Below, piece after piece: positions 9,388 through 38,763 of a stretch of DNA of 64,000 nucleotides. The notes under the pieces are model-generated. The model did not search any database and was not told the DNA's origin. It saw only the letters and a program-made list of their open reading frames with translations. The position numbers were made by a program, and so were the translations under genes. The DNA lies in NCBI GenBank assembly GCA_963422635.1, contig OY730415.1, positions 1,210,088-1,274,087 of the forward strand, read 5' to 3'. Position 1 is the stretch's first letter, and the number at the start of each line of letters is the position of its first letter. This DNA is from Dehalococcoidia bacterium. GTDB taxonomy: Bacteria; Chloroflexota; Dehalococcoidia; Lucifugimonadales; UBA3495.

Positions 9388-11724
9388 TTACTTCTCCACC
9401 TTTTCCAGGCCGGCGTAGCTGAGCAGGAGCCGCCGCAGTTCGCCGCCGTCGAAGCGGACGGATACTTCGTAGTCGTTACCCCACGCCTCGCAGGCCATGA
9501 CCACCCCTACGCCGAATCGGCTGTGCCGCACCCCGTCGCCGATTTCCGGCACGTATCCCGGCGGCGGCTGGGTCGGGGCGGCGGCGGATGAACCGGGGGG
9601 CGAGCCGGGGGCTGAACCGGAGGATAAGGAATGCGGCTCCCGGTTCCGCGAGGGGGGACGCGGGCTGTCGGCAAGCCGGGCCGATGACGCTCCGGTTCCG
9701 GTTCCGGCGCGATTACCCCTTACGTTGCTGCCGGGGGCGCGGGCGTAGGTAGTTAGCTCCTCCGGAATCTCATCCAGAAAACGGGAGCGCAGAGTGGGGC
9801 CGCTGCTGCCCCACATGCTGCGGCGGAAGGCGCGCACTAAGTACAGCTTCTCCTTGGCTCGGGTGATGCCCACATAGCAGAGCCGCCGTTCCTCCTCCAG
9901 TTCTTCGTTGCTGTCCATGGAGCGGCTGTGGGGCAACAGACCCTCTTCCAGACCCACGATGAACACTACCGGAAACTCCAGTCCCTTGGCCTGATGCAGG
10001 GTAATTAGGGTAAGGGTGTCTTCCGATTCTTCGTAGCTGTCGGCATCGGAAACCAGGGAAACCCGCTCTAACAGGGCGGCCAGATCGTTCTCTGGGGAGT
10101 CGGAATGGTGTTCTCCGGCCAAGGCGATGAACTCCCGGAGGTTTTCCAGTCGTTCTTCCGGGCTGTTGTCGTTGCGCTGGATGTGGGCTTCCAGGCCCGA
10201 CTCGGCCAGGGTTAGCTTAATCAGGTCCGCCACCGGCATTTTGGTCTTGAGTTCGGTCAGGCGGCCCAGCAGGTCGCCGAACCGGGCCACGGCGGTATAG
10301 GCGCGGGATGCCAGGGGCGCCGGACAAGGCATCCCAGCGGCTTTGGCCTGGGATACCAGGAGGAGGGCGGCATAAACCGAGAGGCCCTGGCCGATGGACC
10401 AGTTGGTCAAGTCCTGAATCGACTTGTCGCCGATGCCCCGGGGCGGCGTATTGATGGCCCGCGCCAGGTTCAGGTCGTCTTGGGGGTTGTGGAGCAGGAA
10501 AAGGTAGGCGAGCAGGTCGCGGATTTCCCGCCGCCGGTAAAACTGGATGCCGCCGATAATGCGATACTTTATCCCTTGGCGCAGGCAGGCTTCTTCCAGG
10601 GCGCGGGATTGGGCGTTTACGCGGTACATCACGGCGCAGCGGCCGGGGGGTATTCTTTCCCGCCGGGCCAGGTCGTTTATCTGTTTAAGGACAAAGGCGG
10701 CCTCCTCATCCTGGGTATAAGCCTCGTGGATCACCACTTCCATCCCGGCGGGGTTCTCGGTGGTCAGTTCTTTGGGGGCCCGCATACCGTTGTTGGCGAT
10801 AAGACTGCTGGCCGCCCCCAGGATGGTTTGGGTGGAGCGATAGTTCTGCTCCAGGGTGATGACCTGGGCGTCCGGGTAGTCCTGCTGAAAGCTGAGAATG
10901 TTGCGGATGTCGGCGTTGCGCCAAGAGTAGATGGACTGGTCGGGGTCGCCGACCACGCAGATGTTCTGGTCGGGGCCGGTGAGCAGCCGGGCCAGCCGGT
11001 ACTGGGCGATGTTGGTATCTTGAAACTCGTCAATCATCAAGTATTCGTAGCGGCGCTGATACTCTTCGCGCACCTCGGCATTTTCGTAGAGGAGTTGGAC
11101 GGCTCGCAGCAGCAGGTCGTCGAAGTCCACGGCGTTGCGGCGCGCCAGCAGTTCTTCGTAGTGGTGATAGACTCGGGCGGCGGTTTCTTCCGGGTAGCTG
11201 TCATCGGTCTGGGCCTGCCGGGCCAGGGCTTCCGAACCCATCAGCAGGCTCTTGGCCCGGGAGATGATGGCCTGCATCGCCCGGGGTGGGTTGCGCTGGT
11301 CGTCAACGTCGGCTAGTTTCATGGCCTGCTTAAGCAGGCCCAACTGGTCGTCCGAGTCGTAAATGGTGTAATTGGCGTCGAGGCCGACGCCGTAGCCGTG
11401 GCGGCGGAGCAGCCGGGCGCAAAAGGAGTGGAAGGTGCCGGCAAAGATGGCGTCGGCCGCCGACTGGTTACTGCCGAAAAGGGACTGGGTGCGCTCCCGC
11501 AGTTCCCGGGCTGCTTTGTTGGTAAAGGTAACGGCGGCGATGCGGTAGGGGCTGACCCGGCATTCCTGCGCCAAGTAAGCGATGCGGTGGGTGATGACCC
11601 GGGTTTTGCCGCTGCCCGGCCCGGCGACAATCAGCAGCGGGCCGGCGGTGTGCAACACCGCTTCCGCCTGAGCGGGGTTCAGCCCGTCGATCAGGTTAAT
11701 GCCTGGAGCGTTTGGTTGATGCAT
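9388..11724 (-). CDS. pcrA: ATP-dependent DNA helicase PcrA/UvrD
   Basis: AGPGSGKTRV, TFTNKAA, DEFQDTN, GDPDQSIYSWRNA, NYRS, TLHQAKGLEF and YVGITRAK motifs, with a C-terminal Tudor-like tail. Confidence 0.9.
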   Translation of the reverse strand: MHQPNAPGINLIDGLNPAQAEAVLHTAGPLLIVAGPGSGKTRVITHRIAYLAQECRVSPYRIAAVTFTNKAARELRERTQSLFGSNQSAADAIFAGTFHSFCARLLRRHGYGVGLDANYTIYDSDDQLGLLKQAMKLADVDDQRNPPRAMQAIISRAKSLLMGSEALARQAQTDDSYPEETAARVYHHYEELLARRNAVDFDDLLLRAVQLLYENAEVREEYQRRYEYLMIDEFQDTNIAQYRLARLLTGPDQNICVVGDPDQSIYSWRNADIRNILSFQQDYPDAQVITLEQNYRSTQTILGAASSLIANNGMRAPKELTTENPAGMEVVIHEAYTQDEEAAFVLKQINDLARRERIPPGRCAVMYRVNAQSRALEEACLRQGIKYRIIGGIQFYRRREIRDLLAYLFLLHNPQDDLNLARAINTPPRGIGDKSIQDLTNWSIGQGLSVYAALLLVSQAKAAGMPCPAPLASRAYTAVARFGDLLGRLTELKTKMPVADLIKLTLAESGLEAHIQRNDNSPEERLENLREFIALAGEHHSDSPENDLAALLERVSLVSDADSYEESEDTLTLITLHQAKGLEFPVVFIVGLEEGLLPHSRSMDSNEELEEERRLCYVGITRAKEKLYLVRAFRRSMWGSSGPTLRSRFLDEIPEELTTYARAPGSNVRGNRAGTGTGASSARLADSPRPPSRNREPHSLSSGSAPGSPPGSSAAAPTQPPPGYVPEIGDGVRHSRFGVGVVMACEAWGNDYEVSVRFDGGELRRLLLSYAGLEKVEK

Positions 11725-29412: not shown

Positions 29413-29823
29413 TTAGCGGCGTATCCCGCTACGAATGGCCTGCATGGGAACAAAGGGAAGGAGGGCCAGGTGCCGGGCGCGCTTGATGGCCAGGCTCATG
29501 GCGCGCTGGTGCTTGGCGCAGACCCCGCTCTTGCGGCGCGGCTCGATTTTGGCTCGGTCCGATACATATCGACGCAGGCGCTCAAAGTCCTTATAGTCAA
29601 TATCCTTAACGTGGTCCACGCAGAAGGAGCAGACCCTTCGCCGAGGGGCGTAGCGGCCCCGGGGTCGGCCGCCGGGTCTCGAGCCGCCGGCGGGACGCGG
29701 GCCTCGGGATTGGTAGGGCGGGCGGGAACCGGTATTGCCCTGGAATCCGGGGCTTGCCGGGGGCGTTCCCGGGGCTGGGGCCGCCGGCGGTGCGGTGGGA
29801 GCTGCGGGCGCGGGTGTCGTCAT
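29413..29823 (-). CDS. rpsR: 30S ribosomal protein S18 with Pro/Ala/Gly-rich N-terminal extension
   Basis: C-terminal [60 protein letters not shown]. Confidence 0.85.
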
Positions 29824-29937
29824 ACCAGTGCTTCTCCTCGGCTAGTTTTTAGGGCCGGTTGTCGGGCGGTTAGTTGTTAGTTTAATTAAACCGGGGCGGT
29901 CAGCCGTTCGTATCGGTTTGGGTCAACGGGAGCTAGA

Positions 29938-30408
29938 CTAGAAGGGCAGGTCGTCCACGTCGTCATTGGGAGCGTCGTAGCCGCCATAGCCGCCGCTTTC
30001 GGCGCCACCGCCGCGACTGCCGTAGTCGTCCATTCCCCGGCCGCCTTCGCCCCCGTAGGGCGAGCGGTCATCGCCCATACCAGAGCCGCGGGAGCCCAAC
30101 ATTTGCATTTCGGTCAGATTTATTTCCAGAGAAAAGCGAGTTTGGCCGTCGTTTGCCTGATAACTTCGACTGCGGAGCCGTCCCTCTACGTAAACCTGCT
30201 GGCCCTTGGTGAGGTACTGGTTGCAGACTTCAGCCAAGCGACCCCAAGCGCTGACGTTAAACCACTCGGTTTCCTCCCGCTGCTCGCCGGCGGCGGTGCG
30301 GTAACGGCGGCTGGAGGCCACGCTGAAAGACGTTACACCCTGACCGCTGGGGGTGTAGCGCATCTCCGGATCTCTACCCAAATGGCCGATGACGATAATC
30401 TTGTTCAA
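29938..30408 (-). CDS. ssb: Single-stranded DNA-binding protein
   Basis: TTG start at 30408, 11 nt after the rpsF stop. NKIIVIGHLGRDPEMRY OB-fold, Gly-rich tail, acidic tip DDVDDLPF. Confidence 0.85.
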   Translation of the reverse strand: MNKIIVIGHLGRDPEMRYTPSGQGVTSFSVASSRRYRTAAGEQREETEWFNVSAWGRLAEVCNQYLTKGQQVYVEGRLRSRSYQANDGQTRFSLEINLTEMQMLGSRGSGMGDDRSPYGGEGGRGMDDYGSRGGGAESGGYGGYDAPNDDVDDLPF

Positions 30409-30418
30409 CTTGACCTGC

Positions 30419-31093
30419 CTACGCTGGGGGCTGTTCCGCTTCCGGGGAGACATCTTCCACTCCGGAAGCGGGTTCCGCTTTGGCGACCGGGGCTTCTTCG
30501 GCGGTTGCCTCAACCGCATCGACCTCGACCTCGGGGACCGGCTCCGGTTCTGCTACTACCGCTACTTCGGTGGTCGGCGACTCTTCCCCGGCTTCGGCCG
30601 AAGGGGTGGCGTCGGTTGTTTCCGTTTCCGTTGACGCTTCGGCTACGGGCGAGGTTTCTGCGTCCGCCGTTGCCGCTGCGGTAGTATCTGTTGCGGCGGC
30701 AACGGAAGGGGCCGCCGGGACGGCAGGAACGGTTGCCGGGGCGGCGGGGGTGGCCGACACTGGGTCGGGAAGAACTTGCGGCTCCGGGATAGTCACTACC
30801 AAGGAGCGCAGCACCCGTTCATCCAGGCGCAGAAAGTTCTCCAAGGCCTGGTTGAAGGGCGTTTCGGTGGAGAACCGGGTCAGGCGATAGTTGCCCTCCA
30901 GAAAGTGATGGCCGCCCTGGTGAATTGCGTAGGCCAACCGGCGCGTACCCCAAGGTTGTTCCTGGAATATATCTCCGTTCCGACTGGTGATAAAGGCGCT
31001 AATCTGGCCCCAAGCCTCGGCGGCCTGGTCTTGGCTGAGCATCGGGCTGAGGATGGTTACAAGTTCGTAATGACGCAAGGAGGACTCCTGCAA
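30419..31093 (-). CDS. rpsF: 30S ribosomal protein S6 with about 120-aa Ala/Thr/Glu/Pro-rich C-terminal extension
   Basis: RHYELVTILSP...WGTRRLAYAI core, followed by a low-complexity acidic tail. Confidence 0.85.
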   Translation of the reverse strand: MQESSLRHYELVTILSPMLSQDQAAEAWGQISAFITSRNGDIFQEQPWGTRRLAYAIHQGGHHFLEGNYRLTRFSTETPFNQALENFLRLDERVLRSLVVTIPEPQVLPDPVSATPAAPATVPAVPAAPSVAAATDTTAAATADAETSPVAEASTETETTDATPSAEAGEESPTTEVAVVAEPEPVPEVEVDAVEATAEEAPVAKAEPASGVEDVSPEAEQPPA

Positions 31094-31248
31094 AAAATTA
31101 ACCCAATTAAACTTGGTGGGATTATAACATTAGCGAGGCTAACCGCTCAACCATTCGGCTATCGGGTATTTTAATTCCGAACGCTTTAGTTGCCAGGAAA
31201 GGTATCCCCTCTTTACTCCGGAGGGTGGAGAGTTGAAAGACGCTGCCT

Positions 31249-32493
31249 TCAGGAATCCAGTCCCGGCGTCGGAAAGCGGGCGGTAAGCTTCTTGACGGCC
31301 TCCTTGACCTGCGCCTTAACCTGGGGGTCGCCCACATTGTTCAAGGTCTGGACGATTAGCCGGGACACCTCTTTAACCTCCGCTTCGGCAAAGCCCCGAC
31401 TGGTAATGGCCGGCGTTCCGAGGCGCAAGCCGCTGGCTACCCGGGGCGGGTTGGGGTCAAAGGGAATAGCATTTTTGTTGGCGACGATGCCGACCGATTC
31501 CAGGGCCGTTTCCGCTGCTTGGCCGGTAATGCCCAGCGGCGTCAAGTCCACCAGAATCAGGTGGTTCTCGGTGCCGCCGGAGACCAGCCGCAGTCCAGCC
31601 TCGGATAGCTCGTCGGCCATCACTCCGGCGTTGACGACGACTTGGTTGGCGTAGCGGGCGAATTCGGGGCGCAGCGCCTCGCCGAAGCAGACGGCCTTGG
31701 CGGCGATGACGTGCATCAGTGGCCCGCCCTGCATCAAGGGGAACACCGAAAAGTCTATCTGGCGGGCCAGTTCCGCCGTGCAGAGGATGAACCCGCCCCG
31801 GGGGCCGCGCAGGCTTTTTTGGGTGGTAGAAGTTACTACTTGAGCGTGCGGGAAGGGCGAGGGATGGGCGCCGCCGGCAACCAGCCCGGCGATGTGGGCC
31901 ATATCCACCATCAAGGTGGCGTCCACCGCGTCGGCGATGGCCCGAAAGCGCGGAAAGTCTAGCCGCTTGGCGTAGGCGCTGCATCCGGCGACAATCAGCT
32001 TGGGCCGATGTTCGTGGGCCAGCCGTTCTACCTCGTCATAGTCGATATGCTCGGTGTCCCGGTTCACGCCATAAGGAACGAAGTTATAGAGCTTGCCGGA
32101 AAAGTTGACTTCAGCGCCGTGGGTCAGGTGGCCGCCGTGGGCCAATTCCATCCCCAGCACCGTATCGCCCGGCTCCAGCAAGGCGAAATAGACGGCCATG
32201 TTGGCCTGGGCGCCGCTGTGGGGCTGGACGTTGGCGTGCTCGGCGCCGAAAAGCTTCTTGGCCCGCTGAATCGCCAAGCTTTCCACCACGTCCACATGTT
32301 CGCAGCCGCCATAATAACGGCGGCCCGGGTAGCCCTCGGCGTACTTATTGTTCATCACGCCGGCCTGGGCGGTCAGCACCCCTTGGCTGGCATAGTTTTC
32401 CGAGGCGATAAGAACGACGCAATTACGCTGCCGCTCGTCCTCCCGTTGAATGGCGCGAGCGACCTCCGGGTCCTGTTGGCTCAACAGGGACAT
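31249..32493 (-). CDS. glyA: Serine hydroxymethyltransferase
   Basis: [21 protein letters not shown] and [14 protein letters not shown] (PLP-Lys) motifs. Confidence 0.95.
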
Positions 32494-32822: not shown

Positions 32823-33262
32823 TTATTTTACATAATGAATTGCGAATAATTGGTCATTAATTATGGCCGCTTGCTCGTAGTTTCCTCGGAAACCGTCAAC
32901 CAGTAAACGCATTACCAAGTTTACGTCAGACCGTTTCTCTTCCGCATCTTTGACGGTAACCTATTCGGGCAACCCCGGTATCGGGTTCGCCAAGGGTCTG
33001 GTTTTGGTTTCGGAGCGGAAAACGCCGTAGTAAATCTCCAAGTCGGGCAGAGCTTTCAAAGCTCTTAAATAAGCCTGCTGTCGTTGAGGCTAGGGAGTAT
33101 CAGCAAGGGGTGGATGAATTCGAGCGGTGAAGTAACAAACTTCCTGGAGCGTATCCTCAGGGAACCGGTTTCGGCCAGCTTTCGCAAGTCCAGCTACTTA
33201 AAGGGCGTGTTCTTGAAGGCCCGATAGTAGAGGTTGAACCGGTCAATATAGATATTGGTCGG
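32823..33262 (-). pseudogene. Decayed NYN (PIN-like) domain gene
   Basis: Minus-strand translation gives NIYIDRFNLYYRAFKNTPFK*LDLRKLAE. After a frameshift it gives ALKALPDLEIYYGVFRSETKTRPLANP...PE*VTVKDAEEKRSDVNLVMRLLVDGFRGNYEQAAIIND. No start codon, two in-frame TAG, truncated; AT-rich. Confidence 0.55.
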
Positions 33263-33716: not shown

Positions 33717-34514
33717 ATGACCACCAGTTCGGTAGCATGGACTGAAGAGACAGTAGAGGTAGCCGGCGGCCAAATCCAGCTGCTCAAGGGCGGCTCCGGC
33801 GCGCCGCTGTTAGTTCTCCACGACGAAATGGGACACCCCGGCTGGCTGCGCTGGCACGAAGCCCTGGCCCAAAATCGCACCCTTTATATCCCCTGGCACC
33901 CCGGCTTTGGCCCGTCGCCGGAGTTGGATTGGGTAATGAACCTGCACGACCTGGCCGTCTGGTACTTGGGCGCCCTGGACGACCTGGGCTTGGCGGACGT
34001 GGATGTAATCGGCTTTTCCCTGGGCGGCTGGCTGGCGGCGGAAATGGCGGTGATGTGTCCGCCGCAGTTCCGGAAGCTGACCCTGGTGGCCGCCGCTGGC
34101 GTCCGCCCCCCGGAAGGTGAAATCTACGACATCTTCCAGGTAGTCGCCAAGTCCTATATCAACCGCTGCCTGCTGGCCCCGGAGTCGGTAGCCGAGTTCC
34201 AGTCCATCTGCCCCGACGAGCCGACGCCGGAGCAGCAGGAAAACTGGGAAACATCGCTGGAGGGCGCCTGCCGCCTCAGTTGGCGGCCCTACATGCACTA
34301 CCCGGCCCTGCCCCATCTGCTGCCCCGCCTCAAGCGGCTGCCCACCCTGCTGGTCTGGGGCCGCCAAGACCCCATCATTCCCTTGAGCGCCGGCCAGCTC
34401 TACCACGCCTCCATCCCCAACTCCCGCCTGGAGATAATCGAAAACTGCGGTCACCGCCCCGAAGTAGAACACCCGGAACGGTTCGTCGAGCTGGTGCGGG
34501 AGTGGTTGGGGTAG
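33717..34514 (+). CDS. Alpha/beta-fold hydrolase
   Basis: GFSLGGW nucleophile elbow (GxSxG), C-terminal His (NCGHRPEVEHPE); RBS AAGGAG. Confidence 0.8.
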   Translation: MTTSSVAWTEETVEVAGGQIQLLKGGSGAPLLVLHDEMGHPGWLRWHEALAQNRTLYIPWHPGFGPSPELDWVMNLHDLAVWYLGALDDLGLADVDVIGFSLGGWLAAEMAVMCPPQFRKLTLVAAAGVRPPEGEIYDIFQVVAKSYINRCLLAPESVAEFQSICPDEPTPEQQENWETSLEGACRLSWRPYMHYPALPHLLPRLKRLPTLLVWGRQDPIIPLSAGQLYHASIPNSRLEIIENCGHRPEVEHPERFVELVREWLG

Positions 34515-34585
34515 GGGGGAGACGGGGCAGTTTATGCAAGTTTCTTGTCGCATACCTCAACGACACGACCTGTTGTGGAGACGTT

Positions 34586-35794
34586 ATGAAGCTAACAAAA
34601 GCTCAGCAACAAGCAGTGAAATATAGTGGCCGAAACCTACAATTGATCGCTTGCGCAGGTTCAGGTAAAACCGAAGTGGTAGCGCAGCGGATCGCTCACC
34701 TGCTTACCAAACCCGGGTCCGACCGTCTCGAACCTAAAAATATTGTTGCGTTCACTTTCACCAATAAGGCCGCTTCTGAACTGAAGGAACGTATTGTCGA
34801 AAGAACAAAGGAAGCAGCAGAGGGCGAAGTTACCGGAATGGCCAATATGTACGTCGGCACCATTCACGGGTTTTGCCAGGAACTTCTGCAATCTGAGGTC
34901 CCACAGTACTCGAAATATGAGATTCTGGAGGCTGTTCGACAGGGGATTTACGTGGATCGCTATAGTACCCAAACCGGGTTGACCACTACTTCCACTCTCA
35001 ACGGGCGAGCATTAAAGCGGTGGAGCGACACCAGCCGGTACCTGGATGCTTTGTCGGTCTTGCGAGAGGATGAGGTCGATGGCGATAAATTGGAAGATTG
35101 CTCCATATGGGAAGGTCTGCGCAAATATCGTAACCGGTTAACTGAAGATTCATACTTTGACTTTTCTGCATTGCTTGAGATAGCCGTTGCAGAACTTGAG
35201 AACAACAAAGATCTGAGATCTAAAATATCTGAACAGTTAAAATACGTGGTAGTTGATGAATACCAGGATGTCAACCCTATCCAAGAAAGATTAGTAAAGC
35301 TATTGTACGATTTGGGCGCCAACTTATGCGTTGTTGGGGACGACGACCAAACCATTTATCAATGGCGAGGCAGCTCAGTCGAAAACATCTTGACCTTCCA
35401 AGACCGCTATTCTCCCGTGGAACAAATTAGGCTTGAAGAGAATTTCAGGTCCAGTCAAGGTGTTATTGATACAGCCCGCATGTTCATAGAGAAAGTTGAA
35501 GGTAGATTGCGCAAAGCAATGAAAGCAACCGATGCTCAACCATTTGAGACAGGAGACGTGGTTGCCCTGTCCTTCGAAACGCCAGAAGCAGAGGCCAAGT
35601 ATATTGCCGAAACAATCAAGTCGCTACGTGGAGTGGCATTCGACGATGGTGATAGCAAGCGCGGCATTTCGTGGTCAGACATGGCAGTTCTGTTAAGAAG
35701 CGTAAGAAATAATGGAGTAGTCATCACAGAAGCGCTGAAGCTTGCAAATATTCCGTTTGTTGTCAGTGGGTTGGTTAATCTCTTTGAGGCGTAA
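34586..35794 (+). CDS. UvrD/Rep-type SF1 helicase, N-terminal part (motifs Q-IV) of an interrupted helicase-nuclease gene
   Basis: ATG at 34586 preceded by GGAG. CAGSGKTEV, FTFTNKAASEL, VDEYQDVN, VVGDDDQTIYQWRGS and ENFRSS motifs. Ends at TAA 35792-35794 inside the helicase fold. Confidence 0.8.
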   Translation: MKLTKAQQQAVKYSGRNLQLIACAGSGKTEVVAQRIAHLLTKPGSDRLEPKNIVAFTFTNKAASELKERIVERTKEAAEGEVTGMANMYVGTIHGFCQELLQSEVPQYSKYEILEAVRQGIYVDRYSTQTGLTTTSTLNGRALKRWSDTSRYLDALSVLREDEVDGDKLEDCSIWEGLRKYRNRLTEDSYFDFSALLEIAVAELENNKDLRSKISEQLKYVVVDEYQDVNPIQERLVKLLYDLGANLCVVGDDDQTIYQWRGSSVENILTFQDRYSPVEQIRLEENFRSSQGVIDTARMFIEKVEGRLRKAMKATDAQPFETGDVVALSFETPEAEAKYIAETIKSLRGVAFDDGDSKRGISWSDMAVLLRSVRNNGVVITEALKLANIPFVVSGLVNLFEA

Positions 35795-35926
35795 GAAGCG
35801 CGAGCAGCCAGAGACCTTTTCTACTTTATATCGGGCGCATCGTTCGACTCGTCCCAGCTAGATGCCACTGCGCTACGCCAGTCGTGGGATCAAGCCCAAC
35901 TTGGTATATCAAAAGAAAAACTGGAC

Positions 35927-37339
35927 GTGGCGTTGAGATATGCCGAAAGCGTCCACGCCGATTTACGCTCTGAAGGCTCCAGTAATGCGCCAACTATACA
36001 AAGAGCGTTTCTGAAATTCCTAGAACTAACGGAGGTTCGGGAGGAAAAAATCCCGGACAATCGCGGTGAGGTCGTGTTCTTCAACCTCGGGAGGTTCAGT
36101 GAAGCTATTACGGATTGGGAAACTATTCATTTCAGGTCAAAGCCAATAGACTCTTTCCAATCATTCGCACGGTTTCTCTGCTACCAAGCTGAAGGCTCTT
36201 ATAGTGAAGGGGCCGAAGACAATGATTATATAGTCCCTGACGCTGTTCAAATTATGACAGTCCACCAGGCTAAGGGCCGAGAGTGGCCCGCAGTGTTTTT
36301 ACCCGCTCTGTTGCGAAATCGCTTTCCATCGTCTAACCGGAAGAGTTCCGTTTGGGATTTAGTCCCTGGCCAAGCAATTAATAACTCTGCCCGTTATGAT
36401 GGATCCAAAGAGGACGAAAGGCGCCTGTTTTACGTCGCTATGACGAGAAGCAAGAAGTTTCTCCATATGACTTGGGCGCCAATTCAAGGAAAGAACAATA
36501 GGTACGCTAGGAAGTCGGAGTTCTGGGACGACGTTTTGGCATCCGAATACGTTAAACGGCGTCATCCTGATTACGCAGATCGCCGCCGTATAGAAGCCCA
36601 ACCAAAAGCCTCTGTCGCCAATGTTGAGTTTTCTTTCAGTGACTTGAAATACCTATTCGAATGCCCATACCAGTTCAAACTGAGGGTCTTGTACGGTTTC
36701 AATAATCCACTCGTTCCCCCAATGGGTTACGGGAAGTCGCTACACGATGCTTTGGCGGAAGTACACCAGCGCGCAATGCGTGGCAAGATGGTCACCGTAG
36801 ACGATGTCCCTGAACTGGTCAACTGCCATTTGCGGATTCCGTACGCTGCACAAGACTTGCGCGACCGGCTTGGAGAGTTAGCTCATCGAGATATCACCAA
36901 CTACATCGTTGACAATGCTGAAAACCTCCGCTACATAGAGTTCTACGAGCAGTCAGTCCAAGTTAACCTCGATGATGGCGTTAGCATTAAGGGCCGTATC
37001 GATTTGGTGCGCCGCACCGATACTAACGAAACTACCATCGTGGATCTTAAATCCAACGAGCGTAGCCAAGAAGAAGAGGTGACTGAAACACAACTGCATA
37101 CCTATGCACTAGGGTATCAAGAACTCACTGGGAAAGATGCCGACTTCGTTGAGATATATGAGCTAGAGGGCAGGCGTCCTATCAAAAGAGCGGTGGATGA
37201 AGGGTTCATAGACGACGTCCGTACCAAAACCCTAGATGCTGCCAAGTCATTGCGCACGATGAAACTTGAGCCCACCCCTAGCGTAGCAACTTGTCATCAG
37301 TGTGATTTTTCCGCTCTCTGTAGCAAGAGCTTGAGCTAA
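35927..37339 (+). CDS. UvrD C-terminal helicase domain fused to a Cas4/AddB-type PD-(D/E)XK nuclease (same frame as 34586..35794; frame is open from 35795)
   Basis: Helicase motifs TVHQAKGREWPAVF (V) and RLFYVAMTRSKKFL (VI). Nuclease motifs ECPYQF, GRIDLV, IVDLKS, QLHTYALGY and terminal CHQCDFSALC (4-Cys cluster). Confidence 0.75.
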   Translation: MALRYAESVHADLRSEGSSNAPTIQRAFLKFLELTEVREEKIPDNRGEVVFFNLGRFSEAITDWETIHFRSKPIDSFQSFARFLCYQAEGSYSEGAEDNDYIVPDAVQIMTVHQAKGREWPAVFLPALLRNRFPSSNRKSSVWDLVPGQAINNSARYDGSKEDERRLFYVAMTRSKKFLHMTWAPIQGKNNRYARKSEFWDDVLASEYVKRRHPDYADRRRIEAQPKASVANVEFSFSDLKYLFECPYQFKLRVLYGFNNPLVPPMGYGKSLHDALAEVHQRAMRGKMVTVDDVPELVNCHLRIPYAAQDLRDRLGELAHRDITNYIVDNAENLRYIEFYEQSVQVNLDDGVSIKGRIDLVRRTDTNETTIVDLKSNERSQEEEVTETQLHTYALGYQELTGKDADFVEIYELEGRRPIKRAVDEGFIDDVRTKTLDAAKSLRTMKLEPTPSVATCHQCDFSALCSKSLS

Positions 37340-37386
37340 TACGTGGACGCGCCTTATTCACAATGGATAGCCGGCGATGAACCTGG

Positions 37387-37398
37387 CCCCCCCCCCCC
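37387..37398. repeat. Poly-C tract (12 nt) in a C-rich spacer
   Basis: C12, followed by ttgccaCCCCCCgtCCCCC. Lies between the helicase-nuclease stop and the next gene. Confidence 0.9.
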
Positions 37399-37479
37399 TT
37401 GCCACCCCCCGTCCCCCGGCGCTAAACTCTGCCCAATCCCCCCGGCTTTAACGCTACCTTCCCGATTTGAGGTGTTGAT

Positions 37480-38763
37480 ATGCTCATCGGCCACTTTACC
37501 GAACAGCCCTGGCAAGACGACCAATCCGGCTTGATGGGAACCCAGTCCACCGACCTCAGCATCAGCAACGAACATTATAACCCCTCCGTCGGCGCCCAGC
37601 TCTACAACCGCTACCTCGACGAAAAGGTCTATGCCGAGGAAATGGGCTTCGACGCCCTCATGCTCAACGAACACCACAGCACCCCCTTCTGTATGCAGGG
37701 CGTTACCAACGTCGGCGCCTCCATCCTCGCCCGCATCACCAACAAAGCCAAAATCATCATCCTCGGCAACGTCCTGCCCATCTGGGAAGACCCCCTCTGG
37801 CTGGCCGAACAGCTGGCGATGATTGACATGATCTCCCACGGCCGCCTGGTATCCGGCTTTGTGCGCGGCGGCGGCCGGGAAAGCTACTCCCACAACGCCC
37901 CGCCCCACTTCAACCGGGAACGGTTCGAAGAAGCCCACGACTTCCTCATTAAAGCCTGGACCACCCCCGGCCCATGGCGTTGGGAAGGCAAGCACTACCA
38001 CTACCGCTACGTCAACCCTTGGGCGCGCCCCCTGCAGCAACCCCATCCGCCCATCTGGATCCCCTCCACCGTCAGCGTCGAGACCGTGAAATGGACCGCC
38101 GAGAAAGGCTACCCCCTGGTGTTGCTGGCGACCAGGCTGGAGCCAACCAAAGAGGCCTTCCAGCTCTACCACGACACCGCCGCCGAATTCGGCCACAAGT
38201 CGGGAACCCAGAACGTCGCCTACCTGTGGAAAGTCCACGTGGACGAAACCGAAGAAAAAGCCGACGAGGTAGGCCGCAAGTACCTCTCCGGCGTCAGCAA
38301 CCCCTTCCTCTCCGGCAACGAAGGACAGGTCAATCCGGCCATCATGAACCTGCCTGGCCATACCTCCCGCGCCTCCCGGCGGCTGTCCACCACCTCCTTC
38401 GGGCCAGCGGGCCGCTTCGGAACCAACCGCCGCCCCTACGAAGACCAGGCCGCCGACTACAGCATCATCTCCGGCACGCCCAAGACGGTGCTGCCTAAAA
38501 TCCGCCACGTCCTGGAATATCTGCGACCCGGCAGCGTCTTCTTCTGGGACGGCGACGGCGCCATGAGCCACGAAGACCAGATGCGCAGCCTGCGCCTGAT
38601 GGGGCAAGAGGTTATCCCGGCGGTGCGAGAGATGGCTAAAGAACTGGATCTGAAGAGCCCCTTCGAGGTTGACCCCAAAACCGGCGAACCCGTTTCCGAT
38701 ACCCCCGATACTACCGATACCGTCGCCGCCCAGACCCTGGACCCGGTGGCCGGCGACAACTAA
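37480..38763 (+). CDS. Luciferase-like (LLM-class) flavin-dependent oxidoreductase
   Basis: MGFDALMLNEHH and ...GRLVSGFVRGG patterns typical of the TIM-barrel LLM family; 427 aa. Confidence 0.75.
   Translation: MLIGHFTEQPWQDDQSGLMGTQSTDLSISNEHYNPSVGAQLYNRYLDEKVYAEEMGFDALMLNEHHSTPFCMQGVTNVGASILARITNKAKIIILGNVLPIWEDPLWLAEQLAMIDMISHGRLVSGFVRGGGRESYSHNAPPHFNRERFEEAHDFLIKAWTTPGPWRWEGKHYHYRYVNPWARPLQQPHPPIWIPSTVSVETVKWTAEKGYPLVLLATRLEPTKEAFQLYHDTAAEFGHKSGTQNVAYLWKVHVDETEEKADEVGRKYLSGVSNPFLSGNEGQVNPAIMNLPGHTSRASRRLSTTSFGPAGRFGTNRRPYEDQAADYSIISGTPKTVLPKIRHVLEYLRPGSVFFWDGDGAMSHEDQMRSLRLMGQEVIPAVREMAKELDLKSPFEVDPKTGEPVSDTPDTTDTVAAQTLDPVAGDN

Follow-up and report, generated by a model that had tools for sequence, protein, structure and literature searches.

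The window analysed here is a stretch of 64,000 nucleotides from a Dehalococcoidia bacterium (contig OY730415.1). On its forward strand, at 34586-37339, lies a gene for a UvrD-type superfamily 1 (SF1) helicase fused to a C-terminal Cas4-like nuclease, interrupted by one in-frame TAA. There is very little doubt that this gene is a disrupted member of the UvrD-Cas4 family. It sits between an alpha/beta-hydrolase gene and a gene for an LLM-class flavin monooxygenase, referred to below as the hydrolase-LLM site. We favour, with some reserve, the reading that it is a nonsense-interrupted UvrD-Cas4 gene in a variable, defence-type hotspot, and that its intact form would degrade foreign DNA. The architecture, monophyly, genomic contexts and predicted defence role of UvrD-Cas4 were already published in 2017 (Hudaiberdiev et al. 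2017, BMC Evol Biol 17:232, PMC5704561), so that the window gene is a further, broken member of a known, uncharacterised family. New here are the hydrolase-LLM hotspot, with its series of empty sites and its swappable restriction-type cargo, and the pairing of UvrD-Cas4 with an HNH_2 endonuclease in the nearest relatives.

The gene is a single frame of 917 codons. Open reading frames (ORFs) 34586..35794 and 35927..37339 share this frame, and the TAA at 35792-35794 (codon 403) is the sole in-frame interruption within 34586-37339. The joined translation of 917 amino acids is one polypeptide, a UvrD-type SF1 helicase followed by a C-terminal Cas4/PD-(D/E)XK nuclease. The 5' part of the gene (34586..35794; codons 1-402 plus the TAA) encodes helicase domains 1A and 1B and the first half of 2A, with motifs Q, I, Ia, II, III and IV; GSGKT is found at residues 25-29, TFTNKAA at 57-63, DEYQD at 224-228, GDDDQTIYQWRG at 251-262 and NFRS at 286-289. 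The in-frame continuation (35795..36505, forward strand) encodes 2B and the second half of 2A, with HQAKGREW (560-567) as motif V and VAMTRSK (617-623) as motif VI. Pfam models match the joined protein with UvrD-helicase (PF00580, residues 3-275, 4e-61), UvrD_C (PF13361, 1.6e-35) and PDDEXK_1 (PF12705, residues 682-912, 8e-23). The nuclease domain, of the Cas4/AddB type, covers residues 680-917 (36623..37339, forward strand) and ends at the gene's own TAA. It contains ECPYQF (692-697), GRIDLV (803-808), DLK (820-822), QLHTY (836-840) and C903-x2-C906-x5-C912. An earlier sequence-only reading of the window had described two same-frame ORFs parted by a single TAA between motifs IV and V, and a one-polypeptide fusion of a UvrD helicase with a Cas4-type Fe-S nuclease. 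Translation bears out the frame and the position of the stop, the motifs and Pfam domains confirm the fusion, and every motif listed in that reading is found in the joined translation.

An alignment of 111 sequences shows full or almost full conservation of all catalytic residues, R621 among them. Walker A K28, D224/E225, Q255 and R288 are invariant, and C693, D806, D820, K822, Q836, Y840, C903, C906 and C912 of the nuclease domain are invariant or near-invariant. The four cysteines C693, C903, C906 and C912 are presumed ligands of a 4Fe-4S cluster. An AlphaFold 2 model based on this alignment reached a predicted local distance difference test (pLDDT) score of 86.6 and a predicted template modelling (pTM) score of 0.84, and was used for the structure searches; a model based on 21 sequences (pLDDT 58.5) was set aside. 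The top whole-chain Foldseek match was AddA (4ceh_A, E=8e-34, 1191 aligned columns), followed by UvrD/PcrA, RecB and AdnA/B. The sequence profile of the fusion agreed with this, matching UvrD in the PDB at 1e-65. The model shows a predicted fold with an AddA/RecB-like overall architecture.

The sequence-only reading could not assign this fusion to a named system. The fusion is the UvrD-Cas4 clade of Hudaiberdiev et al. They describe nucleases of the Cas4 type, joined to an SF1 helicase like UvrD, as the largest branch of pfam12705; the fusion is monophyletic with a median ratio of nonsynonymous to synonymous substitution (dN/dS) of 0.08, and its genes adjoin type III Mod/Res or Dcm/Vsr genes, or stand alone (PMC5704561). 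A part in defence systems, perhaps an ancillary one, is "strongly suggested" there as a computational prediction (PMC5704561). The supplementary tree of that article includes Arenimonas composti TR7 as a leaf labelled "Cas4-UvrD" (PMC5704561). The protein of A. composti TR7-09 (L002) is 54% identical to the window protein over its full length, and 53-58% identical over the helicase and nuclease parts. We place the window protein in the clade because of this identity to a protein of the genome so labelled. The helicase motifs, a pfam12705 nuclease with catalytic residues and four cysteines, relatedness and context all agree with the clade. An uninterrupted ORF is what the window copy lacks, which makes it a disrupted member and not a member of another family. 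The likeness to the published clade extends to the architecture, to homolog contexts with type III Mod/Res, with Dcm/Vsr or alone, and to a dN/dS of about 0.08. The window copy differs in its premature TAA and in being solitary in a Dehalococcoidia hydrolase-LLM hotspot. In addition, its syntenic relatives pair the gene with HNH_2 (type IV-like), a pairing not found in the available parts of PMC5704561.

The family is large. More than 110 uninterrupted homologs, 911-929 amino acids long and 59-80% identical over the full length, came out of a search of 5.8 billion proteins; hosts of the homologs include Deltaproteobacteria, Gammaproteobacteria, Dehalococcoidia, Trueperaceae, Nitrospirae, Firmicutes and Thermoanaerobaculia. 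The nuclease domain alone, searched against 1.84 billion cluster representatives, gave 1303 matches at E<=1e-3, of which 492 reach E<=1e-10, and the full-length proteins among the matches listed are mostly about 900-1000 amino acids long with the domain at the C-terminus. Clustered at 50% identity, the family as a whole makes up hundreds of clusters, which are spread over many phyla and are also found on plasmids and predicted viral contigs. The guanine-cytosine (GC) content of UvrD-Cas4 genes follows that of the host in many lineages (41-69%), and the family is therefore old and widely exchanged. The window also contains a separate PcrA/UvrD-type helicase of 778 amino acids (9388-11724, reverse strand), which matches TIGR01073 over its full length with 791 bits. 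As this protein presumably serves as the SF1 housekeeping helicase, the fusion counts as an additional paralog and not as the housekeeping enzyme. Many distant matches in the collection scans belong to this PcrA-like gene rather than to the fusion.

The TAA at codon 403 interrupts RecA-like domain 2A after motif IV and before motif V. A sense codon stands in this column in all 110 homologs, which have D in 52, A in 20, E in 16, P in 7, K in 4, S in 3, Y in 2 and other residues in the rest; the syntenic ortholog of L082 has AAT. No other decay is visible. Departures from columns conserved at 90% or more number 6 of 208 before the stop and 5 of 244 after it in the window protein, compared with 6 and 7 in the closest intact homolog (P0001). 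Measured against the L082 ortholog, codons 1-402 have a dN/dS of 0.09 and codons 404-917 one of 0.067, a substitution pattern that shows strong purifying selection on both halves of the gene. Since the homologs all have sense codons here, other decay is absent and dN/dS is low on both sides, the stop is either young or an error in the sequence. As judged from these comparisons, the gene has most likely been newly inactivated by a one-base change to TAA. A functional full-length enzyme is probably absent from this genome, and the window copy is probably dead.

An error of sequencing or assembly, with the gene intact and functional in the organism, would explain why the TAA is the only lesion in 2.75 kb and why conservation and dN/dS after the stop match those of intact homologs. 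Single substitutions link TAA to GAA, AAA and TAT/TAC, which encode residues that the homologs use at this variable position (E in 16, K in 4 and Y in 2). We consider such an error a doubtful but serious alternative. Long-read consensus assembly errors are mostly homopolymer insertions or deletions, and a substitution to a stop is untypical, which we count against it. Accessory genes are subject to decay in this part of the genome, as the clearly degraded NYN gene 1.4 kb away shows. The closest intact allele is only 80% identical, with no near-identical one in the collection of 5.8 billion proteins.

A functional split, in which polypeptides of 402 and about 470 amino acids assemble or the stop is read through, is very improbable. 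Purifying selection on both halves relative to L082 would suit it, and both ORFs are called in the source annotation. The low dN/dS, however, reflects a long shared history and is uninformative on the time since the mutation. Translation could restart at GTG 35927 at the earliest; this would forfeit 44 conserved codons, including the invariant E404 and A407 and the start of 2B, and the break would cut the RecA-like 2A domain in two. The gene also ends in TAA, which argues that TAA is a normal stop here and against read-through. Both ORF fragments are singletons in a collection of 15 billion sequences, and they lie on a single contig of 2.64 Mb. Among the options left open by the sequence-only reading, a recent lesion or an error thus stand, while the genuine split falls with the continuity of 110 of 110 homologs.

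The hydrolase-LLM site is bounded by two conserved host genes that also flank UvrD-Cas4 in related lineages. The left border is the alpha/beta-hydrolase gene (33717..34514, forward strand; GC 64.8%, GC at third codon positions (GC3) 0.82), 83% identical at the amino-acid level to the Abhydrolase_6/Hydrolase_4 gene of loci L081-L083. The right border is the LLM-class (Bac_luciferase) flavin monooxygenase gene (37480..38763, forward strand; GC 62.3%, GC3 0.83), 93% identical to that of L081/L082; its 90% cluster is named [quoted passage not shown]. The identities of both genes, which agree with the hydrolase and monooxygenase flanks of the earlier reading, rest on this 83% and 93% identity to Pfam-annotated orthologs. 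Between the hydrolase and the fusion gene, the left junction and 5' leader of the cassette (34515..34585, forward strand) begin with GGGGGAGACGGGGCAGTTTAT (34515-34535), common to the upstream region of the L081/L082 ortholog. The right junction (37340..37479, forward strand) contains a C12 homopolymer (37387-37398) and an LLM promoter-like element, TTGCCA (37399-37404) and TAAACT (37423-37428) separated by 18 nt. Relatives have this -35/-10-like element ahead of their LLM gene whether the site is empty or occupied. In this window UvrD-Cas4 is the only cargo at the site.

A hydrolase search of metagenomes yielded 80 loci. In about 59 of them the site is empty, with the hydrolase and LLM genes adjacent and about 12-320 bp apart, and cargo is confined to the closest relatives. 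The adjacency is seen on marine and soil metagenome contigs (within L097-L176) with 54-81% hydrolase identity. In this Chloroflexota group the hydrolase and LLM genes appear to form a conserved two-gene unit. The closest homolog of the fusion, P0001 (80% amino-acid identity), occupies the same hydrolase-LLM site in a related lineage. There (L081/L082) the order is hydrolase, two small DUF4258/DUF2283 genes, UvrD-Cas4, HNH_2 and LLM, with GmrSD upstream. The HNH_2 endonuclease gene begins 8 nt after P0001, and its product resembles phosphorothioate-dependent restriction endonucleases, below the cut-off. Other relatives carry other cargo: DUF4258/DUF2283, Dcm, Vsr, an EcoRII-type endonuclease and two small ORFs in L097; DUF4258/DUF2283, HNH_2 and the same two small ORFs in L098; a BrxC/BrxD-like ATPase in L108; and HicAB with a 65%-identical UvrD-Cas4, adjoining a 90%-identical LLM gene, in L091. 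All of this cargo is low in GC (46-55%). The comparison at one site of empty, UvrD-Cas4 alone, UvrD-Cas4 with HNH_2, HNH_2 alone and Dcm-Vsr-EcoRII supports exchangeable, defence-type cargo.

The cassette has diverged further (synonymous divergence, dS, 1.4-2.0; 65-80% amino-acid identity) than its flanks (dS 0.8-0.9; 83-93%), which suggests allele replacement rather than strict co-inheritance, with the dS excess possibly owing in part to a difference in codon bias and not to separate acquisition. We infer that recombination in the conserved flanks is the simplest route for cargo exchange. Scans of all 64 kb with Rfam (gathering threshold) and for tRNA/tmRNA genes gave no match, and there is therefore no tRNA-type integration site. 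No integrase gene marks the hydrolase-LLM site, and a repeat search of 34300-37700 found no terminal direct or inverted repeats beyond the chance level. A 21-nt pair (I3; 34514-34534 and 37423-37443) with 71% complementarity is probably a coincidence; it overlaps the LLM promoter-like element. A tblastn search of the window with the L082 island genes (GmrSD, DUF2283, DUF4258, HNH_2, the small ORFs and a DEAD helicase) found no remnants, and simple deletion from an L082-like island is therefore not shown. A general linkage to hydrolases was rejected, as the hydrolase neighbour of the L088 homolog has no detectable relation to the window hydrolase. Synteny with the L081/L082 lineage is confined to the hydrolase-cassette-LLM block.

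The composition of the gene is foreign to its surroundings. Its GC is 48.2%, whereas gene-sized windows elsewhere have 61.0 +/- 1.2% (z about -10.6). This is the GC minimum of the whole 64-kb window, and the gene is also its strongest tetranucleotide outlier, so that both windowed GC and k-mer profiles deviate from the rest of the window. Across three lineages the GC3 of the cassette stays near 0.50, below the 0.80-0.89 of the host genes that flank it. The low-GC island of the sequence-only reading is thus real as a dip and the foreign composition of the fusion gene is supported, but the figures given there, 40-42% against 68%, are not: 60-nt rows inside the gene average 48% (range 32-60), and the LLM gene has 62%. 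Likewise, the proposal of acquired DNA holds for the composition and not for a recent arrival peculiar to this genome, because an 80%-identical copy lies at the same hydrolase-LLM site in a related lineage.

About 17 independent contexts of the family were tallied, the window included. Type III Mod/Res genes adjoin UvrD-Cas4 in L089, L093-96, L179 (an Athalassotoga plasmid) and L181, and a Dcm gene with a type II endonuclease gene, with or without Vsr or HNH, does so on Priestia and Vibrio plasmids (L177 and L178). L086 is a dense defence island (DUF87, AAA_21+DUF4276, GmrSD, NOV_C; GmrSD/PARIS-like), and toxin-antitoxin or insertion sequence genes flank L084, L087 and L091. No second helicase-nuclease or AddB/RecC-like gene was found within 8-10 kb on either side in 36 loci, nor in the window at 29.5-41.7 kb, in line with the earlier description of a solitary gene that has no such partner. 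The homolog neighbourhoods are variable and hold many defence genes (type III restriction-modification, Dcm/Vsr/restriction endonuclease, GmrSD, HNH_2, toxin-antitoxin), and about 59 relatives have nothing at the site. A conserved core gene, syntenic with an AddB/RecC partner, does not fit the lack of a partner, the empty sites and the patchy spread. As a side observation on mobile carriers, L181 (1855-13175) has the order DUF2924 and a large serine recombinase, UvrD-Cas4, Mod, Res and a helix-turn-helix (HTH) gene, an integrative element with a three-gene unit. Full-length relatives also occur on predicted viral or prophage contigs (IMG/VR, L180-L231) at 60%, 55% and 36% identity, with about 25 more at 24-32%; no full-length relative was found among GenBank phage records.

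From context and by analogy with known enzymes, we consider a defence-type role for UvrD-Cas4 somewhat better than an even bet. The intact enzyme would engage DNA ends or nicks. It would then translocate and unwind in the 3'-5' direction at the expense of ATP, as an SF1A motor like UvrD/PcrA, and pass the displaced strand into the tethered nuclease to be cut, as in RecB and AddA. Foreign linear or nicked DNA would be shredded in this way, by the enzyme alone or after a neighbouring restriction enzyme has cut. UvrD-Cas4 is often a probable accessory beside restriction-modification genes; the single-gene defence module of the sequence-only reading is therefore possible and not established.

The comparison with AddA, RecB and AdnB bears on both this role and its main competitor. 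They share with the fusion a UvrD-like motor followed by a C-terminal RecB-family nuclease, AddA being the best whole-chain match of the predicted structure, and by this analogy the fusion probably cuts the strand leaving the motor with its tethered nuclease. The fusion is about 300 amino acids shorter. With NCBIfam equivalog cut-offs as membership tests, it reached no curated cut-off: 263 bits against 911 for PcrA, 154 against 696 for recB and 150 against 708 for addA. The structural match of the model to AddA supports a similar way of working, not membership. In AddAB, the four-cysteine cluster, of the kind that the fusion carries, belongs to AddB and not to AddA. Compared with AddAB, RecBCD and AdnAB, the fusion has no AddB, RecC, RecD or AdnA partner in the 36 loci, and it is accessory and mobile (about 59 empty sites, GC3 of 0.50 against 0.82, plasmids, an integrative element).

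The competitor is a repair or recombination enzyme that performs one-subunit, RecB/AddA-like resection, either mending self-inflicted breaks of restriction-modification systems or partly duplicating RecBCD/AddAB. The structural ranking of AddA, then RecB and AdnAB, is what such an enzyme would give, as are the matches to RecB/AddA hidden Markov models at 1e-44 to 1e-45. Several homologs are solitary among housekeeping genes, and the association with Dcm-Vsr is with a repair-linked pair. A role analogous to RecB/AddB nucleases, with partial redundancy with RecB, was suggested by Hudaiberdiev et al. (PMC5704561). Set against this are the equivalog scores far below cut-off, the missing partner subunit, the patchy distribution with the site empty in close relatives and the foreign composition of the gene. 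The occurrence of the gene on plasmids and, together with a serine recombinase, on an integrative element also argues against repair, as does the knock-out found here, for which the gene must be dispensable enough. Where type IV enzymes (GmrSD, HNH_2) co-occur, they do so without a methylase, and the usual self-restriction problem does not arise. We regard a repair enzyme as unlikely.

Searches among named systems gave generic matches. In PADLOC scans, the UvrD-helicase part of the whole protein matched GajB (2e-66, the strongest named match) and RTasHel, and the nuclease domain alone matched Cas4 models (7e-13) and DruK; assignment to a named PADLOC system was dropped, as these were the only matches. 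Like the fusion, GajB of Gabija is a UvrD-like SF1 helicase found in defence loci. Solved GajB chains have 493-499 amino acids, however, and the match to GajB in the PDB is local (1e-16 over about 110 amino acids). GajB has no nuclease domain, its partner being GajA, an OLD-type nuclease. No GajA-like gene is adjacent in the window or in 12 homolog loci; in L086 and L091, ATPase genes of the AAA_15/AAA_21 type are found several kb from UvrD-Cas4. Like CRISPR Cas4, the nuclease domain shows the fold signature of Cas4 and the cysteine pattern C...CxxCx5C, but it scores 33 bits against a cut-off of 65 for TIGR00372 and is fused to a helicase within 917 amino acids, and no cas genes turned up around the fusion gene in the window or around 12 of its homologs. 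Nhi, Hna and DdmD resemble the fusion in joining a helicase and a PD-(D/E)XK-type nuclease in one polypeptide in accessory regions, a functional analogy. Their motors are Upf1/DNA2-like SF1B or SF2, in other domain orders. PADLOC scans gave no relationship to them beyond generic matches, membership being tested no further. A link to the MANTIS preprint was discarded, as it concerns a SauUSI-like effector and is irrelevant to the fusion.

Several points weigh against a defence hotspot with a DNA-degrading enzyme. Full-text literature searches found no experimental work on any UvrD-Cas4 family member, so that the case for a defence role and for DNA shredding is built on context and analogy. As drawn from such analogies, the mechanism would give no account of how self DNA is spared. 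No PADLOC v2 model spans the whole fusion protein. Five of the roughly 17 contexts (the window, L085, L088, L090 and L092) are solitary among housekeeping genes, which fits a repair role equally well. The possible base-call error at codon 403 and the codon-bias share of the cassette's dS excess belong here as well. A stronger form of the defence reading makes UvrD-Cas4 an autonomous, single-protein, RecBCD-like shredder of foreign DNA ends with the restriction enzyme optional, and the hydrolase-LLM site a dedicated defence hotspot of environmental Dehalococcoidia with cassettes swapped via the flanks. We put this form forward tentatively and think it less likely than not to hold in full. Since the window copy is probably dead, the locus teaches nothing new on mechanism. 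The family is nevertheless large, strongly conserved and repeatedly linked to restriction systems, and the hotspot series nominates intact orthologs such as P0001 as candidates for study.

The region of the island is embedded among core genes. rpsR-ssb-rpsF and glyA lie just upstream (29413-32493, reverse strand). Between glyA and the hydrolase gene, outside the helicase cassette, a smaller second low-GC patch (32.5-33.3 kb, GC 49-55%) holds an NYN/LabA-like (PF01936) pseudogene remnant at 32826..33176 on the reverse strand, a 117-amino-acid stretch with two in-frame stops. A direct Pfam scan of the remnant gave no match; it was found by homology search, matching intact NYN proteins of about 180 amino acids at up to 59% identity (best E=7e-35), two of which are named Chloroflexi/Chloroflexota by their sources. 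The in-frame stops and this match uphold the decayed NYN nuclease gene of the earlier reading, which makes it the second decayed accessory gene here.

Two further gene pairs were observed at the loaded sites. A DUF4258 and DUF2283 pair (or two DUF2283 genes) lies directly 3' of the hydrolase gene in every richly loaded version of the site (L081 9402-9856; L082 9387-9856; L097 1063-1511; L098 3863-4311) and is missing in the window; it resembles a toxin-antitoxin pair. At the LLM-proximal end, two small conserved ORFs are present whatever the cargo (L082 13680-14778; L097 4586-6033; L098 5854-7363) and absent from the window and from L081. The first encodes an HTH protein of about 155-176 amino acids with weak HTH_Tnp-like matches, and the second starts M(Y/P)TLSQ(I/L)RRRVDALKRKYA. 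These two ORFs may be an island backbone or a regulatory module. In the window, the C12 tract (37387-37398) stands directly upstream of the TTGCCA of the LLM gene, and C6 and C5 runs follow. The tract could be prone to slippage, affecting LLM expression, or a place prone to assembly error.

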